Shown here: positions 124-22,310 of the stretch, piece after piece
Numbering within the stretch: the first letter of the stretch is position 1
Layout of the letters: every line of letters begins with the position of its first letter
Assembly: GCA_025881525.1 (NCBI GenBank)
Contig: GCA_025881525.1_4849.1
Origin: a phage
DNA length: 24,537 bases
Reading direction: 5' to 3' (one strand)
The notes under the pieces: model-generated
What the model was told of the DNA's origin: nothing
The model's input: only the letters and a program-made list of their open reading frames with translations
The model's database searches: none
Translations under genes and position numbers: made by a program

Positions 124-134
124 ACTCATTCCTG

Positions 135-163
135 TTGACGTAGAATCGCAGCTGATGTAGATT
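135..163 (+). promoter_or_regulatory. sigma70-like promoter candidate TTGACG-17bp-TAGATT for early plus-strand block
   Basis: TTGACG 135-140, 17 bp spacer, TAGATT 158-163; about 30 bp upstream of first ATG; overlaps conserved TTGACGTAGAAT motif. Confidence 0.4.
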
Positions 164-193
164 GAACTCATCGAAACAAACGAGGGTGAAGAG

Positions 194-4558: not shown

Positions 4559-4590
4559 TTGACCAATCTACACCGAGCGCATAGTATAAT
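4559..4590 (+). promoter_or_regulatory. promoter-like element TTGACC then TAGTAT (17 bp spacer) or TATAAT (20 bp spacer)
   Basis: Read directly; shares gcatagtat...tctacatca with the minus-strand reading of the 9781-9800 region. Confidence 0.3.
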
Positions 4591-4618
4591 CTACATCAGG
4601 CTTACCGGAGATATCACT

Positions 4619-8401: not shown

Positions 8402-8947
8402 TTAATCATCCAGTTTCACGCCGGGAATCTTGCCTGCTGCGATGGCGTCGTAAATGAATGTGGCATCATTAATTCTCGGGTCGTCACCATAATCAAACAT
8501 TAACAATTCTTTTATCTTCTCCACTGCTGCATCTCGCTTCTTTTCTGCTTCTGTGCGAAGTGGGATGAAAACATCCTTATTGGATGGGGTTATTGCGTAG
8601 TAAATTTCACCAGATGGTCTGATAACTATTTTTTCGCCATCAATACCAATAACCTTGACTTTTCCCCATGACGTTCCGTTGCCGATATACTCACATTCAC
8701 ACCCAGCTGGCGGGACCCCTTCGCCGTTCCATGCTGGCTTTTGTAATGCGGCGAGTGCGGATTCGTATTGCTGCTTAGTAACCACATCCGCAATCCAGTC
8801 ATCGCATTTTTTGAGTTTAAAGTCACTGCAATAGTCAGATTCCATTTCAAACAACTGGCCCTCACTATCTTGCTCTACAGCATCAACTCCATCAGGCCAA
8901 CCACCACGCTTAGGCAATTCTTGAACTAACAGGTCGATAAGTTTCAT
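8402..8947 (-). CDS. hypothetical protein (181 aa)
   Basis: Long ORF in minus-strand operon with overlapping start/stop to neighbours. Confidence 0.65.
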   Translation of the reverse strand: MKLIDLLVQELPKRGGWPDGVDAVEQDSEGQLFEMESDYCSDFKLKKCDDWIADVVTKQQYESALAALQKPAWNGEGVPPAGCECEYIGNGTSWGKVKVIGIDGEKIVIRPSGEIYYAITPSNKDVFIPLRTEAEKKRDAAVEKIKELLMFDYGDDPRINDATFIYDAIAAGKIPGVKLDD

Positions 8948-9168
8948 TTTGTTTCTCCATCAGAAAGTATTTCTTTATATTCACCCTCAACCTCGTACAG
9001 ATCACCCAGCTTAAATACCTCATACGAGTTTTGGCCTCCTTCTCGCCATGAGTGAACCTCATTCAGTTTTTCAGCCACCGCATTAGCCTCCTGTTCAGTT
9101 GGGTAAACAGCAACCACATTTGATGAAACGCCGCATTCGATACACCCAATATTAAATACAAGCCACAT
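8944..9168 (-). CDS. hypothetical protein (74 aa)
   Basis: ORF in minus-strand operon. Confidence 0.55.
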   Translation of the reverse strand: MWLVFNIGCIECGVSSNVVAVYPTEQEANAVAEKLNEVHSWREGGQNSYEVFKLGDLYEVEGEYKEILSDGETK

Positions 9169-9170
9169 GA

Positions 9171-9485
9171 TTATTCTCCCAGTGCCTTATTAACCGCCGC
9201 ACGCGCATTATCCAGAACGCGACGCTTGCTTGATGTTGTCCAGACTTTGCCGTCTGCAGAATCGTAACATTCAATCATTTGCTGCATAGCAGCAATTAAT
9301 TCGGAAATAATCATGTCACGATAACCTAACTCCGCAGCAATGGCTGACTTTGGGTGTAAAGACTCAGATGTCATGGCGGATACATGCTTTAAGTAAAGCC
9401 CACCAAAATTATCAAGAGCCTCTATGTCACGCTCTGCATACAAATTGTTACTGTCAGTCATTTGATATACTCCATAATCTCGCAT
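9171..9485 (-). CDS. hypothetical protein (104 aa)
   Basis: ORF in minus-strand operon. Confidence 0.6.
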   Translation of the reverse strand: MRDYGVYQMTDSNNLYAERDIEALDNFGGLYLKHVSAMTSESLHPKSAIAAELGYRDMIISELIAAMQQMIECYDSADGKVWTTSSKRRVLDNARAAVNKALGE

Positions 9486-9601
9486 TCACGCATCTGCACC
9501 AGACCAAATGGTGCAACCACCTTGCCGCACGGACGGACTTTGATTTGCTCAAGACCGAACATTCCGCATCGTCCGTTCTCTTTGAATTTTACCATCACCA
9601 T
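9458..9601 (-). CDS. hypothetical small Cys-containing protein (47 aa)
   Basis: Translation MVMVKFKENGRCGMFGLEQIKVRPCGKVVAPFGLVQMRECEIMEYIK; fills gap in operon; overlaps next gene by 28 nt. Confidence 0.25.
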   Translation of the reverse strand: MVMVKFKENGRCGMFGLEQIKVRPCGKVVAPFGLVQMRECEIMEYIK

Positions 9602-9603
9602 GA

Positions 9604-9762
9604 TTAATGCCCGTTCTTCTTGGCTAATTGTTGCGCGCGCTTCTTCGTGTACCCGCAGGCCATCAGGCGCTTGACCTCGTTGCGGCGCTTTGCGAAATGG
9701 TACTCACGAGAATTAAATGCGCATTCGTTGCTAAAGGTAACATTACGTGGATTCATCTTCAT
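9604..9762 (-). CDS. hypothetical small basic protein (52 aa)
   Basis: Translation MKMNPRNVTFSNECAFNSREYHFAKRRNEVKRLMACGYTKKRAQQLAKKNGH; GAGTGAGGTG RBS; first gene of the minus block. Confidence 0.35.
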   Translation of the reverse strand: MKMNPRNVTFSNECAFNSREYHFAKRRNEVKRLMACGYTKKRAQQLAKKNGH

Positions 9763-9780
9763 CACCTCACTCATCGTTTG

Positions 9781-9836
9781 ATGTAGATACTATGCACCAC
9801 CACTCAATCTACGTCAACAGTCATTGTGATAGAATT
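9781..9836. promoter_or_regulatory. divergent promoter region: TTGACG -35 (minus, 9812-9817) and extended -10 TGaTAGAAT (plus, 9827-9835), built around the 15-mer AATCTACGTCAACAG
   Basis: Read directly; located between divergently oriented gene blocks. Confidence 0.45.
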
Positions 9837-10830: not shown

Positions 10831-11302
10831 ATACTGGCGACCGCTGGCAATTATTATAATTGCTGCTGCTGGTGCGTTGTGGGTGCGTGGCGAAATTATC
10901 AGCTACGGCGACCAGCGATACGCAGAAGGCAAAGCTCAAGCAATCGCAGACCAGAAGGCCGCAGACGAACAAGAGGAGCAACGACGCAATGCAGAACTGC
11001 AAAAAATTCAGGCCGACGCACAGCAAAGAATTGATGCTGCGCGCAATGATGCTGTTAATGCTGCCGCTAAGTCTGGCAGGTTGCAGCAACAACTCACCAG
11101 TATCCGCAAGCAGCTCGTCGGATATTTCACCTCTGAGTCCATTGGCAACCCAGCCGCAGAAACCGGAGTTTTGCTTGGAGACGTGCTCAGCAAATCTGTC
11201 GAAAGAAATCGACAACTGGCAGATTATGCTGACAGGGCGAGAGAAGCGGGATTAGCGTGTGAGGCGCAGTACAATTCGCTGCGTAATAAAAAAGCCCCGT
11301 AA
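10811..11302 (+). CDS. Rz: i-spanin (Rz-like)
   Basis: N-terminal TM (LAIIIIAAAGALWV) followed by charged coiled-coil periplasmic domain; GGAGG RBS; hosts an embedded lipoprotein ORF. Confidence 0.7.
   Translation: MMSILAKYWRPLAIIIIAAAGALWVRGEIISYGDQRYAEGKAQAIADQKAADEQEEQRRNAELQKIQADAQQRIDAARNDAVNAAAKSGRLQQQLTSIRKQLVGYFTSESIGNPAAETGVLLGDVLSKSVERNRQLADYADRAREAGLACEAQYNSLRNKKAP
11034..11255 (+). CDS. Rz1: o-spanin (Rz1-like), embedded in +1 frame within Rz
   Basis: Lipoprotein signal with lipobox MLRAMMLLMLPLSLAG-C, Pro/Ser-rich mature part; fully nested in i-spanin gene. Confidence 0.6.
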   Translation: MLRAMMLLMLPLSLAGCSNNSPVSASSSSDISPLSPLATQPQKPEFCLETCSANLSKEIDNWQIMLTGREKRD

Positions 11303-11318
11303 TGGGGCTTGTGTTTAA
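11285..11318. terminator. bidirectional hairpin terminator (GCCCC-gtaat-GGGGC) flanked by A-run and T-rich tract
   Basis: Read directly; spanin stop codon in loop; convergent gene blocks meet here. Confidence 0.6.
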
Positions 11319-12519: not shown

Positions 12520-12575
12520 TATTGACGAATCTACGTCACTTAGTCAATACTGTTGGTGTAGAATGATTCTACCAC
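12520..12575. promoter_or_regulatory. divergent regulatory region with TTGACG, AATCTACGTCA motif, inverted repeat TGACG-N6-CGTCA and 15-bp palindrome GTAGAATgATTCTAC (12558-12572)
   Basis: Read directly; between divergently transcribed blocks. Confidence 0.4.
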
Positions 12576-19045: not shown

Positions 19046-19243
19046 ATGGCTAAATACGAAGTCATCGCACGCGGAATCTTTGTTAAAGAGAAAGGCAAGA
19101 TTCGTGAATTGCAGCTTGGCGAGGTGATTACCGAACCAGATGAGCATCTGCTGCCAAAACTGCGCGTTATGCCAGAACTGGAAAAGTCTTTCGAAGTCGC
19201 AACCCCGCAAGAAAAGACGACAAAGAGAAAGAAAGCAGAGTAA
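19046..19243 (+). CDS. hypothetical protein (65 aa)
   Basis: GAGGA RBS; immediately followed by terminator. Confidence 0.5.
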   Translation: MAKYEVIARGIFVKEKGKIRELQLGEVITEPDEHLLPKLRVMPELEKSFEVATPQEKTTKRKKAE

Positions 19244-19244
19244 A

Positions 19245-19272
19245 CTGAACCCGCATAATGCGGGTTTTTTAT
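19245..19272 (+). terminator. Rho-independent terminator (CCCGC-ataat-GCGGG followed by TTTTTT)
   Basis: Read directly. Confidence 0.65.
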
Positions 19273-19283
19273 TGGGGGTTTCT

Positions 19284-20102
19284 ATGGCTGTCAGGTACGA
19301 AATAAACACAACTCCGGCTGATGGAGAGGTTTTGCTTAGCGAAACCATGTCAGCAGACTGGTCAGCACTGCAGGTACAGATTGTGCCGCTAAATTCTTCC
19401 GGTGGCTATGAGCCATTAACAAGCGGAACCGTGTCCGTGAAGGTGTCGCCATTTGAATCTGGCAACTACTGGATTGACGTCAACAATAATAATTATTATG
19501 GCGTGGCGCTGCGACTGAAGGTGATCAAGTCACAGATACCTGCTGGCATTGCATCTCTGAAAGTCCTGGTATGGCGAACTGCTACATCAGTACCATCAAG
19601 TCAGGTTGTCGCGCAGTCCTATGCAGAGTTTGCCAACAAGCAAGGCAAGCTGTTCACTGCGTCTCGCAGAGTAACTGATGTTGCTGGCGGAGCCAGCCTT
19701 GACAGCATATTTATCACCGGAACAAAGCAGGTGATATTCAACCAGCGCATTATTGGTTACACAGGGAAAGGTGTTGTTGCATCAATCTATCGCGGTGCTG
19801 TTGCCACTGGTGGCACGGCGGCAGAGATTAACAACCCAAACGACATAACGCCACAGGCAGCCACTGCGCAGTTAATTACTGGCGCCACCGTGACAAACAT
19901 CGGGCAGCTGACGGTAGCAGCAACATACAGTGAGGGAAACGCATCGAATCAGGGGCAGGGTAACTCTCAGGCGAAGCTCGGCGAGCAGATTATCATGGCA
20001 CCAAATACGACGTATTTGCTTCGCATAACATCACTGGATACTGCGGTGCAGAATATCAATGCGTACGTTTCATGGTTTGAGGATGATACTTATCTGGCGT
20101 GA
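19284..20102 (+). CDS. hypothetical protein, Ala/Thr/Gly/Ser-rich (272 aa), possibly structural
   Basis: ATG 19284 with GGGGGT RBS; track ORF 19140-20102 would read through the terminator, so the shorter form is preferred. Confidence 0.6.
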   Translation: MAVRYEINTTPADGEVLLSETMSADWSALQVQIVPLNSSGGYEPLTSGTVSVKVSPFESGNYWIDVNNNNYYGVALRLKVIKSQIPAGIASLKVLVWRTATSVPSSQVVAQSYAEFANKQGKLFTASRRVTDVAGGASLDSIFITGTKQVIFNQRIIGYTGKGVVASIYRGAVATGGTAAEINNPNDITPQAATAQLITGATVTNIGQLTVAATYSEGNASNQGQGNSQAKLGEQIIMAPNTTYLLRITSLDTAVQNINAYVSWFEDDTYLA

Positions 20103-20104
20103 TA

Positions 20105-20135
20105 AAAGAAAAGCCCCGTGAAGGGGCTTTTTATT
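20105..20135. terminator. bidirectional hairpin terminator (AGCCCC-gtgaa-GGGGCT) flanked by A-run and T-run
   Basis: Read directly; convergent genes on both sides. Confidence 0.65.
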
Positions 20136-20136
20136 G

Positions 20137-20673
20137 CTACAGACGCATCGGCATAACAACAATCTTCGCAGCCTCGCCAGTTGGCGCACTAAGGCAGCAA
20201 ACTGCGGCATTTGTATTTCCGTTTAGTTCAAACTTAACGCTGCAGAATTTAGGATTGAACAGCTTCGTGGCTTTCTCAATATCAACAAGGTAGCCAGCAT
20301 TGAAGCCAATTTCCTCTGCTGGCAAGGTCTGATTCGGAATGACGCGATCAATATCAGGGAATCGGCCATCAATCTCTTCGCAGATACCAGCACCAACCAT
20401 TACACCAGCTTCATGATGATACGTTGCAATTTTCGAATTTGTATCAATAATGGCGTAGTCATAGCGTTTTGTTGGAGATTTCCCAATCTTGATGATCGCA
20501 TTTTCTGTCAGCTTATTGTCATGGTTGCCACCAATAAATGCGCGATGACCGTCAGTTGATGCAATGCGACCATCAGGCATGAAGCAAATACCATTCAGGT
20601 AATATCGCACATCATTGCGCGCCTGAAATATTAACGCTGATTCAAGTAATAATTTGCTGATTTTTAGTTTCAT
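20137..20673 (-). CDS. truncated beta sliding clamp (DnaN) homolog: domain II plus C-terminal part of domain III, no domain I
   Basis: Blocks DVRYYLNG, TDGHR, DGRFPD..RV.P, EIGFN and C-terminal VVMPMRL match E. coli DnaN residues about 130-366 as recalled; 178 aa versus 366 aa. Confidence 0.75.
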   Translation of the reverse strand: MKLKISKLLLESALIFQARNDVRYYLNGICFMPDGRIASTDGHRAFIGGNHDNKLTENAIIKIGKSPTKRYDYAIIDTNSKIATYHHEAGVMVGAGICEEIDGRFPDIDRVIPNQTLPAEEIGFNAGYLVDIEKATKLFNPKFCSVKFELNGNTNAAVCCLSAPTGEAAKIVVMPMRL

Positions 20674-20846
20674 CACTTCATCTTAATCATATGTTGTTTT
20701 GCAACCTTCAGGCATTCTTCAAAAATGCCACCCTTCTTTGCGCTCTGGTGACGCTTGTAATACTTAATTGCCGCATCAATTGCCATCTGGTCGATATCTG
20801 GCAGCTTGGCGCGCAGCTGTTTTTCGATAAATTGTTCAGCGTTCAT
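20673..20846 (-). CDS. hypothetical small protein (57 aa)
   Basis: Fills gap in minus operon; ATGA overlap with downstream DnaN-like gene; below ORF-track cutoff. Confidence 0.35.
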   Translation of the reverse strand: MNAEQFIEKQLRAKLPDIDQMAIDAAIKYYKRHQSAKKGGIFEECLKVAKQHMIKMK

Positions 20847-21090
20847 GATTTATCTTCACCCATCCTTTGCTTGCACCGTGCGATAAGATAAGACCTTTCT
20901 TGCGCAACGCCTGAAGGCGACGATCAAGGACTCGAAATCCCTCATGTGGTTTTGTTGATAACTTTCTGCATACAGAATGAATACCGTTACCACCAATGCC
21001 GCCATAAAAGTGGATCTCAGCGAATGTTTTTGGCTTGTTAAAATCCAACGCATTCATAATCATTGCGTCGAGTTCTTCATACTTACTCAT
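20836..21090 (-). CDS. putative winged-helix DNA-binding protein (84 aa)
   Basis: C-terminal VLDRRLQALRKKGLI resembles winged-helix recognition region; pattern-based. Confidence 0.45.
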   Translation of the reverse strand: MSKYEELDAMIMNALDFNKPKTFAEIHFYGGIGGNGIHSVCRKLSTKPHEGFRVLDRRLQALRKKGLILSHGASKGWVKINHER

Positions 21091-21899
21091 TTCATCTTCT
21101 CCAGAATTGCCATAACTTCGTGAATGTCAGCAACAGGAATCTGAATAAATTCCTCATCCTCTGCCACCACATGACCAGCAGGTAGAATTACATGGTCGGC
21201 TGGCTTCAATAACTCAATCAGGCGGTCTACTGGCTTAATCTTTTTCGACTTCAGCACTTTGGCTGTGACCTTGTCCTTGCCTTGCGCTTTGGCTTCTTCG
21301 ACTGCCTCGTCGATAACTTTAACCGCATCATCGCCATGTTCACGCGTTACTGCTACGGCATTTGCATAGCTGATTTGTCCTGCACTGATGCGCGCTTTTA
21401 CTTCTGCTGGCACATCACCCAGCGACAGGTGCATTTGCACGTCAGATACTGAGCGGCCTACCTTCTTGGCGATTTCTTCATTTGTCCAGCCAAATCCTTT
21501 CAATCGCGTGTAAGCCTTTGCACGCTCAAACGGGTCAAGCTGCTTGCCCTGACTGGATGACACCATGAAGGCGATTTTGTCCGCCTCGTCGCCAGTGAAA
21601 TCCTTGCACTCAATGCGAACGATTGGTGCGCCGCGTTCAATGGCTCGTAGTGCACCAAGATAGCGATGCTGACCATCAAGAATGCGGATTCCTTTGTCGT
21701 CAGGGATAACTGTTAATGCTGGCAATGGCTGACCTGATTCCCAGCACTGAGCGAAATATTCAACGTGTTGCTCATCTGCTTCACGGATGTTATATCCCGG
21801 CTCCAGATAGATTCGCTCCACTGGCACGAGATAGGTTTTGTTAACAGCAATACCGTTGCGCGTTTCTTTGTCTGAATAGATTTTGCTTAGTGTTTTCAT
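21087..21899 (-). CDS. ParB-like nuclease-domain protein (ParB/Srx fold with DGQHR motif) plus HTH region
   Basis: IRILDGQHRYLGAL motif; downstream segment VQMHLSLGDVPAEVKARISAGQISYANAVAV resembles ParB HTH region. Confidence 0.75.
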   Translation of the reverse strand: MKTLSKIYSDKETRNGIAVNKTYLVPVERIYLEPGYNIREADEQHVEYFAQCWESGQPLPALTVIPDDKGIRILDGQHRYLGALRAIERGAPIVRIECKDFTGDEADKIAFMVSSSQGKQLDPFERAKAYTRLKGFGWTNEEIAKKVGRSVSDVQMHLSLGDVPAEVKARISAGQISYANAVAVTREHGDDAVKVIDEAVEEAKAQGKDKVTAKVLKSKKIKPVDRLIELLKPADHVILPAGHVVAEDEEFIQIPVADIHEVMAILEKMK

Positions 21900-22222
21900 T
21901 GTTTCTTTCCTAATGCTTTCTTGATAGATTCTTCAGCTAACAGCAATTCTTCTGGGTATTGCTCATTCCAGTTTTGTTTGTATGCCTTGCCAAGCATTTT
22001 TTGCAGAGCTTCAAGCAACTCAGGTGCTGCGGCTATTAACTTTGCATTTGCACGCGTTTCATCAGCCTCTCTGGCATGAACATTTTCATAAACAGGTGTT
22101 AATACATTTGCCACCTTATATCGATGACCAATAATTGCGCCTCTGATTCTGATGTATGGCTTATCTACTTCTTCTGGTAAAACCTGCCACGGACCTTTTG
22201 TACCTTTGAATTCATCTTTCAT
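21896..22222 (-). CDS. Ead/Ea22-like phage protein
   Basis: Motif ANAKLIAAAPELLEALQKM characteristic of Ead/Ea22-like proteins (from memory); ATG 22222 with GAGGTGAGTG RBS preferred over 22240. Confidence 0.5.
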   Translation of the reverse strand: MKDEFKGTKGPWQVLPEEVDKPYIRIRGAIIGHRYKVANVLTPVYENVHAREADETRANAKLIAAAPELLEALQKMLGKAYKQNWNEQYPEELLLAEESIKKALGKKQ

Positions 22223-22249: not shown

Positions 22250-22310
22250 TTTCTACGTCACTAACTATAAACACGCCATCAATCTACGTCAACAGGAATA
22301 TGCTAAAATC
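22250..22310. promoter_or_regulatory. divergent promoter region with two direct copies of TCTACGTCA (22252-22260, 22283-22291); minus: TTGACG-17-TATAGT; plus: extended -10 TGcTAAAAT (22301-22309)
   Basis: Read directly; 15-mer AATCTACGTCAACAG identical to the copy at 9806-9820. Confidence 0.45.

Follow-up and report, generated by a model that had tools for sequence, protein, structure and literature searches.

What is a ParB-family protein doing in a small operon that runs against the head genes of a phage? The question is raised by a stretch of phage DNA of 24,537 nucleotides (nt; GenBank assembly GCA_025881525.1, contig GCA_025881525.1_4849.1), which we analysed as a whole and call here the window (24.5 kb in the genome scans), and in which five overlapping minus-strand genes lie between 22222 and 20137. 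Based on our data, they seem to form a conserved accessory operon of virulent siphophages of the Swiduovirus/Akiravirus type, antisense to head and neck genes; the promoter from which they are probably transcribed is of host type and a member of a phage-wide family. The key product would be an orphan ParB-family protein, for which the searches described below returned neither a ParA nor a parS, and which may act early in infection as a regulator or organiser that binds DNA through its helix-turn-helix (HTH) in a nucleotide-dependent way, much like KorB, DndB, VirB or HerB, with phage promoters, or else phage or host DNA, as possible targets. To this reading, in which the protein is not a partition protein, we give a probability of roughly 0.45. 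A protein of 57 amino acids (aa) and a short beta-clamp-like protein would make up a constant core together with the ParB-like protein, and the first gene and an 84-aa gene would occupy two exchangeable slots.

The ParB-like protein (270 aa; 21087..21899, minus strand) consists of an N-terminal domain of the ParB/Srx type, a ParB HTH and a short C-terminal domain. In Pfam it matched HTH_ParB (E 2.6e-11, 44 bits against a cut-off of 22.6) and, at residues 137-183, the KorB domain PF08535 (E 7.3e-6, 26.3 bits against 22.3), which is also precomputed for most of its close homologues; in PHROGs it fell into phrog_1033, 'ParB-like partition protein', with an E value of 6e-91. Searched alone with phmmer, the protein found Spo0J of T. 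thermophilus (1vz0, E 4.7e-13, residues 41-202) and ParB of M. xanthus (7bnk, E 1e-9, residues 25-184), with B. subtilis Spo0J, Noc and KorB (8qa8, 1r71) among the further proteins of solved structure. These alignments extend from box I through the HTH, and the searches of solved structures returned no match for the C-terminal domain. A profile made from 25 family members reached Spo0J at 2.1e-16 and the M. xanthus ParB at 1.3e-12, besides Noc and KorB. A ParB-like protein with a DGQHR motif and an HTH, as proposed in a preliminary description made from the sequence of the window, is supported.

In these alignments, the DGQHR motif (residues 75-79; 21663..21677, minus strand) falls on box II of Spo0J/ParB, GERR(x)R. 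At the aligned positions, the GERRxRA of box II (GERRYRAA) is replaced by DGQHRYLGA and the ENLQR(E) of box III by SSSQGK, the family consensus of this phosphate (P-) motif being DG(Q/H)HR. The HTH, WTNEEIAKKVGRSVSDVQMHLSL, recognised by both HTH_ParB and KorB, occupies residues 137-159 (21423..21491, minus strand). Down to 37% identity, G76, H78, R79, R126, Y130, R132, R149, S150 and D153 are invariant in the family, and D75, S115, S116 and G118 nearly so. Comparison of the window with three relatives (dS 0.34-1.14) gave a dN/dS of only 0.011-0.022 for the ParB-like gene, which shows extreme purifying selection and a tightly constrained function; for the 84-aa, 57-aa and clamp-like genes the values were 0.13-0.25, 0.04-0.07 and 0.10-0.16, respectively. 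Since dN/dS is low in these four genes, and 201 phage records match the operon region, the set of open reading frames (ORFs) is not a product of chance.

The database labels, together with a match to NCBIfam TIGR00180 (E 5e-10), would fit a classical ParABS-like partition of the phage genome, which was among the functions proposed in the preliminary description. Nevertheless, this match scored 39.4 bits, under the cut-off of 58.45, and the Noc model was also sub-cut-off. The ParA-binding motif (L/I/F/V)G(K/R)G(L/I/F/V) is lacking from the N-terminus of the protein (MKTLSKIYSDKETRNGIAVNK), and no parA is annotated in the operon, in the examined relatives or in the swi2 genome, which belongs to a phage described as virulent. 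The parS-like repeat that had been suggested as a check was not found either, the window having no match to TGTTTCACGTGAAACA with up to 3 mismatches and no recurring palindrome among its 15 perfect 7+7 inverted repeats. Within the fold, DG.HR motifs are characteristic of the 'ParB-like nuclease' branch, and a nuclease domain had indeed been proposed, which might serve to degrade host DNA. Such a label is not indicated here, because the three-part, HTH-bearing layout is that of DNA-binding ParBs and not that of stand-alone nuclease-type domains. We therefore regard both partition and nuclease activity as highly improbable. As judged from its sequence, the protein is a true ParB-family member with a DNA-binding layout, a DndB-like phosphate motif and no features of a partition system among those sought.

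Orphan proteins of this kind have been described elsewhere. In a survey preprint, orphan divergent ParB folds carried by phages and plasmids were shown to bind CTP, ATP or GTP, and DndB is presented as an ATP-dependent repressor; nucleotide specificity is reported there as not predictable from sequence or AlphaFold3. The ParB-like protein appears to match this class exactly. A published example is HerB, also an orphan ParB encoded by a mobile element, which reprograms transcription upon entry. By analogy, the ParB-like protein would bind a nucleotide, recognise DNA through its HTH and have a regulatory role.

The promoter type and the contexts of homologues both point to early expression. A sigma-70-like promoter, TTGACG-17-TATAGT, was found at 22264..22292 (minus strand), inside the 22250-22310 region where one had been predicted, and a promoter is annotated at the equivalent site of ASO78B. 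Its 17-mer CTGTTGACGTAGATTGA (22295..22279) occurs identically at 9820..9804, at the head of a second antisense operon (9820..8402, minus strand) within the structural region. The promoter overlaps a short motif, TGAYGTAGA, with one copy over the -35 hexamer and another just past the -10; the latter (TGACGTAGA, 22252..22260, minus strand), 3 nt 3' of the -10 hexamer and kept in ASO78B, Akira and swi2, could serve as an operator or as part of the promoter. The window holds 9 copies of TGAYGTAGA against 0.32 expected, mostly in intergenic, promoter-like regions. Sites of the form TGAYGTAGA(W)T lie at 132-165 (plus strand), 4590-4598 (minus strand), 9779-9820, 12530-12572 and 22252-22295 (minus strand), as direct or inverted pairs around the -35 and -10, with the stretch 12558-12572 forming a perfect palindrome, GTAGAATGATTCTAC. 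Ahead of operons in swi2, that of the primase/helicase region among them, non-coding sequence of promoter-like character carries 14 copies, and in a different context two copies of GTAGATT flank the -10 hexamer of a ParB gene of 55% identity. TGAYGTAGA(W)T may thus be a phage-wide promoter element or operator. The ParB operon promoter at 22264 can, by its sequence, be counted with the other CTGTTGACGTAGA-type promoters, and this promoter class, common to replication and small-gene operons, indirectly suggests early expression of the ParB operon.

As for the contexts, ParB homologues more distant than those of the close relatives belong to early operons in lambdoid phages, where they stand directly before O and P in the order cro-cII-ParB-O-P in Morganella prophages and in Erwinia phage EhrS_59, and after N and a small ORF in a Chimaeribacter prophage. 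In another contig the homologue adjoins a primase/helicase/ERF module, and in Jilinviruses it follows the tail genes.

The close relatives are siphophages of about 45-48 kb, of the Swiduovirus, Akiravirus and Buchananvirus type; the window has about 90% nt identity to Escherichia phages swi2, C1 and ASO78B, Shigella phages Sf11 and DS8, and Salmonella phages Akira and IME207. We compared the architecture of the operon in six close relatives and in one distant relative whose ParB is 56% identical. The ParB-like, 57-aa and clamp-like genes form a constant core, the order of which is kept in the distant relative at 56%, 67% and 67% identity, respectively, while the slots differ. Slot 1, upstream of ParB, holds a member of the PF27050 family in the window, ASO78B and swi2, EaC in Akira, a position-equivalent 114-aa ORF in Bas78, and an annotated anti-restriction gene (L025 2576-2836) plus a small ORF in Sa179lw. 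Slot 2, between ParB and the 57-aa gene, contains the 84-aa gene in the window, ASO78B and Akira, and also in swi2, there with an extra ORF; in Bas78 its place directly after the ParB gene is taken by a C-5 cytosine methyltransferase (PF00145, E 1.7e-21; L024 1045-1842), in Sa179lw there are two small ORFs, and the slot is empty in the distant contig. Such a pattern marks the operon as a putative exchange hotspot for accessory, possibly anti-defence, genes. The anti-restriction gene and the methyltransferase in the slots of relatives are as expected of an early-acting island.

These slot contents also raise another possibility, in which the ParB-like protein would track along DNA and recruit or activate slot-encoded modifying or anti-defence proteins, helping in anti-restriction or DNA modification. 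Besides the methyltransferase of Bas78 and the anti-restriction gene of Sa179lw, this would be in line with the ParB-methyltransferase fusions, which according to the survey preprint are the common kind of fusion in phages, with the reported activation of thymine dioxygenases by some phage ParBs, and with the Dhillonvirus locus, where the upstream partner of the clamp-like gene is Nmad5. The latter has been described as deletable and as toxic when cloned, and a mutation in it allows escape from the Tmn defence. Nevertheless, the window operon has no modification enzyme and yet conserves its ParB at 98-99% identity, the ParBs linked to dioxygenases have no HTH domain, in contrast to the present protein, and the PADLOC defence-system models gave no matches. 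We also considered Nmad5 as a homologue of the ParB-like protein and ruled it out, since the two show no homology. Altogether, a helper role of this kind is quite improbable.

The third member of the core, the beta-clamp-like protein (20137..20673, minus strand), has 178 aa, or 179 aa from an upstream GTG at 20676. It aligns to residues 136-289 and 315-366 of E. coli beta (E ~1e-10), that is, to domain II and the C-terminal part of domain III, and has the identical end MPMRL. Because only these residues were aligned, the protein corresponds to about 1.5 clamp domains, in contrast to the three domains and 366 aa of beta. In agreement with this, TIGR00663 scored 31 bits against a cut-off of 137.65, and with 178-179 aa the protein falls short of a three-domain DnaN protomer. 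The short-clamp family is represented in 281 phage records. PHROGs and RefSeq label it (phrog_3007) as 'RusA-like Holliday junction resolvase'; since the protein aligns with DnaN and not with RusA, this looks like an annotation error spread through many phage records. A short clamp-like gene (about 170-195 aa) lies antisense inside the head-morphogenesis cluster in four unrelated groups, namely the present clade, Dhillonvirus, Kagunavirus and Burkholderia Naesvirus, the loci compared with that of the window being L021 2956-3510, L022 2998-3579 and L023 2962-3483.

A clamp relative so close to a ParB invites the idea of a replication-linked trio, with the ParB-like, 57-aa and clamp-like proteins acting together on phage DNA replication. 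They might, for instance, mark replication sites or be loaded there, or capture Pol III or clamp-binding proteins of the host. The preliminary description had arrived at replication or host DNA metabolism from the gene neighbourhood, and part of our data agrees with it: the order ParB-57aa-clamp persists in the distant relative while the slots change, in three lambdoid contexts ParB homologues immediately precede O and P, in another contig one adjoins primase, helicase and ERF, the clamp-like protein covers parts of beta up to the MPMRL end, and swi2 is annotated with a primase, a helicase, a RecE-like exonuclease and a recombinase and with no DNA polymerase. The reading is weakened by the fact that each gene occurs without the other in other phages. 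The examined prophages and Jilinviruses have the ParB-like gene and no clamp-like gene, Kagunavirus, Dhillonvirus and Naesvirus have the clamp-like gene and no ParB, and the main replication genes of swi2 are far from the operon region. For these reasons we consider a replication-linked trio possible and, on balance, unlikely. A more elaborate version would be a single device, in which an NTP-gated ParB clamp loads at GTAGAWT-type sites on phage DNA, the 57-aa protein serves as an adaptor, and the clamp fragment, with its MPMRL end, captures the host's Pol III or clamp loader, or else couples replication to transcription, in a way that somewhat recalls the use of sliding clamps by T4 gp45 and Mu MuC. 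This we regard as a long shot.

Our preference for a nucleotide-dependent DNA-binding regulator or organiser has to be set against several observations that weigh against it. The synteny of ParB, 57-aa and clamp-like genes, as well as the position of ParB before O and P, fits a role in replication equally well. The N-terminal domain gave no match to PF02195 (ParBc) at a reporting limit of E<=1, and nucleotide binding is only putative because catalytic-type residues of box III have been replaced. Regarding the candidate sites, TGAYGTAGA is non-palindromic, unlike the sites of ParB and KorB, and it may be a plain promoter element because GTAGAWT resembles a -10 hexamer. The motif was absent near the prophage ParB homologues, and the lone copy of ECOO78 is not kept in the promoter of Arya.

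The first gene of the operon (21896..22222, minus strand) encodes a protein of 108 aa, or 114 aa from 22240. The start at ATG 22222, as in the preliminary description, is likely, because the homologues begin at MKDEFKGT; this ATG is preceded by GAGGTGA. An Ead/Ea22-like product had been proposed, a membership that we ruled out. The Pfam family Ead_Ea22 (PF13935) did not match the protein or any of 38 homologues at a reporting limit of E<=10, whereas the same Pfam library, as a positive control, matched lambda Ea22 and two Ead/Ea22-like proteins with E values of 1e-28 to 3e-35. BLASTP against lambda Ea22 gave an E value of 1.3, and hhalign of the first-gene family against an alignment of six Ead/Ea22 proteins a probability of 0.2%. 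The likeness to lambda Ea22 and P22 Ead comes down to a small gene heading an accessory early-type operon and to a short motif, ANA.(L/F)IAAA.P, of about 15-25 residues, which lies within an optional insert of some Ead/Ea22-like proteins (hhalign probability 5%); the conserved core MS.I..QALRE...QQYIKRRDQENEDIALTVGKLRVELE is missing from the first-gene product.

Homologues of the first gene carry instead PF27050, 'Phage_P22_Y8K6', and the family corresponds to phrog_1273 (3e-23). Its members have a conserved N-terminal domain of 80 aa, with the pattern GPW...LPEE.DKPYIRIRG...ETRANA.LIAAAPELLEAL, then about 30 hypervariable residues and, at the end, a conserved AI.KALGE. As far as can be read from the alignment, the hypervariable residues form a pattern typical of diversifying pressure, as in target- or defence-interacting proteins. 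The AlphaFold2 model (pLDDT 79) shows three strands followed by long helices; it had no match in the PDB, and in BFVD it matched uncharacterised phage proteins only. In the second antisense operon, a 104-aa ORF (9485..9171) has an unrelated N-terminus and ends in YDSADGKVWTTSSKRRVLDNARAAVNKALGE, a tail also found in some PF27050 members (P0135, P0136), which suggests that the C-terminal tails are modular and exchangeable. The equivalent position in swi2 is occupied by a full PF27050 paralogue.

The 84-aa protein (20836..21090, minus strand; phrog_7185) had been described as a small winged-helix protein, and its AlphaFold2 model (pLDDT 86.8) makes this plausible. Helices are predicted at residues 5-14, 23-27, 37-44 and 48-64, a strand at 21, and further strands at 68-71 and 76-79, giving a topology of helix-strand-helix-helix-hairpin, as in a winged helix, with the invariant RVLDRRLQ of the family in the long helix that precedes the beta-hairpin. 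The top Foldseek matches in the PDB were all winged-helix proteins (ETS, LexA, H1/H5, Z-alpha, MotA), although weak (E>=0.14, TM 0.45-0.63), and the Pfam match to HTH_27 was weak as well (E 0.18). In other phages and prophages, distant homologues of the 84-aa gene lie among small early accessory genes, as neighbours of Ral, Lar, Dam, RecT and NinX. They sit without either a ParB or a clamp, so the 84-aa gene was ruled out as a travelling partner of these two. The 57-aa protein (20673..20846, minus strand) matched only phrog_4439, which has no assigned function, and its gene is directly upstream of the clamp-like gene in every examined relative of the clade.

The remaining structure of the locus agrees with the preliminary description. 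The ORF list contains all five minus-strand ORFs at the positions given there (22240/22222..21896, 21899..21087, 21090..20836, 20846..20673 and 20676/20673..20137), and direct reading of the sequence gives, in gene order, junctions of ATGA, ATGA, an 11-nt overlap and TGATG; the overlapping genes form a single promoter-to-terminator unit. The operon ends at an intrinsic terminator with a stem-loop and a T-run (20109..20131, minus strand), which is bidirectional in the annotation of relatives; the GenBank record of ASO78B has both a promoter and terminators at the equivalent positions. According to the annotation of relatives, the flanking plus-strand genes encode, on the upstream side, the major capsid protein and a decoration or virion structural protein and, on the downstream side, a lipoprotein, a membrane protein and an HK97 gp10-like connector, which supports the view of a non-structural module embedded between capsid and connector genes.

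Two side observations concern the surroundings. Nearly identical GC-rich hairpins (AAAAGCCCCGTnAnGGGGCTT) occur at 20103-20131 and 11284-11310, in both cases where gene ends converge, and are probably bidirectional terminators, both orientations being annotated in relatives. The plus-strand ORF at 19140-20102 has a Cys/Arg-rich N-terminal extension of 48 residues (MSICCQNCALCQ...) that yields a spurious Tat-like match; its true start is probably internal, since the swi2 orthologue is shorter (282 aa), and the methionine of MAVRYE would give about 272 aa.

The module is in itself ordinary, being already annotated in about 200 public genomes, where its products appear as ParB-like, DNA-binding protein or transcriptional regulator and as DNA polymerase III beta subunit; searches of the swi2 and ASO78B literature, and for transcriptomes of such phages, gave nothing specific on it. 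What our analysis changes is the annotation: the 'partition' label of the ParB-like protein, the Ead/Ea22 assignment of the first gene and the label 'RusA-like resolvase' of the clamp-like protein should all be dropped. Orphan ParB-fold proteins of phages and plasmids are increasingly seen as nucleotide switches that control transcription, reprogram the host or activate DNA modification. To our knowledge, a role is known for almost no such protein of virulent phages. The present family is abundant in Salmonella, Escherichia and Klebsiella phages that are candidates for therapy, and it is a tractable test case because it is abundant, strongly constrained and located beside slots that hold a methyltransferase or an anti-restriction gene in relatives; the same module is available in the sequenced E. 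coli isolates Bas78 and Bas80. If the single-device version of the trio were true, it would represent a new way for a phage, whose close relative has no annotated polymerase, to commandeer the host replisome.

Among the known systems, the best relatives of solved structure are the chromosomal ParB/Spo0J proteins and Noc, with which the alignment runs from box I to the HTH; the phage protein differs from them in its DGQHRYLGA and SSSQGK, and in having no ParA-binding motif, no parS in the window and no C-terminal match. DndB and the DGQHR family have in common with it the DGQHR P-motif and the ParB/Srx-type fold that bears it. In contrast, the phage protein scores far below the thresholds of this family (TIGR03187, 16.9 bits against 58.85; PF14072, E 0.11 and 12 bits against 29.1), it carries a ParB HTH, and no dnd genes lie nearby.

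HerB/YfjB of F-like plasmids resembles the ParB-like protein in being encoded by a mobile element, in combining an N-terminal domain with an HTH and in having no ParA, the expression at entry being a property of HerB. HerB itself is much larger (652 aa), with the extra domains D3 and D4 and canonical CTP-binding boxes, and the phage homologues in the HerB survey were from cyanophages only; the plasmid relatives of the ParB-like protein are mostly at 26-33% identity, with a best of 40.6%.

KorB, the global repressor of RK2/IncP plasmids, has a ParB-type N-terminal domain and an HTH, as the phage protein does, and both its Pfam domain and its structures were recovered in our searches. KorB operators are multiple sites located at promoters, and the roughly one dozen copies of one short motif at the promoters of swi2 are reminiscent of them. 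The differences lie in the partners, since neither IncC nor KorA is present (a KorA homologue not having been sought), in a candidate motif that is non-palindromic, and in the non-canonical boxes II and III of the ParB-like protein.

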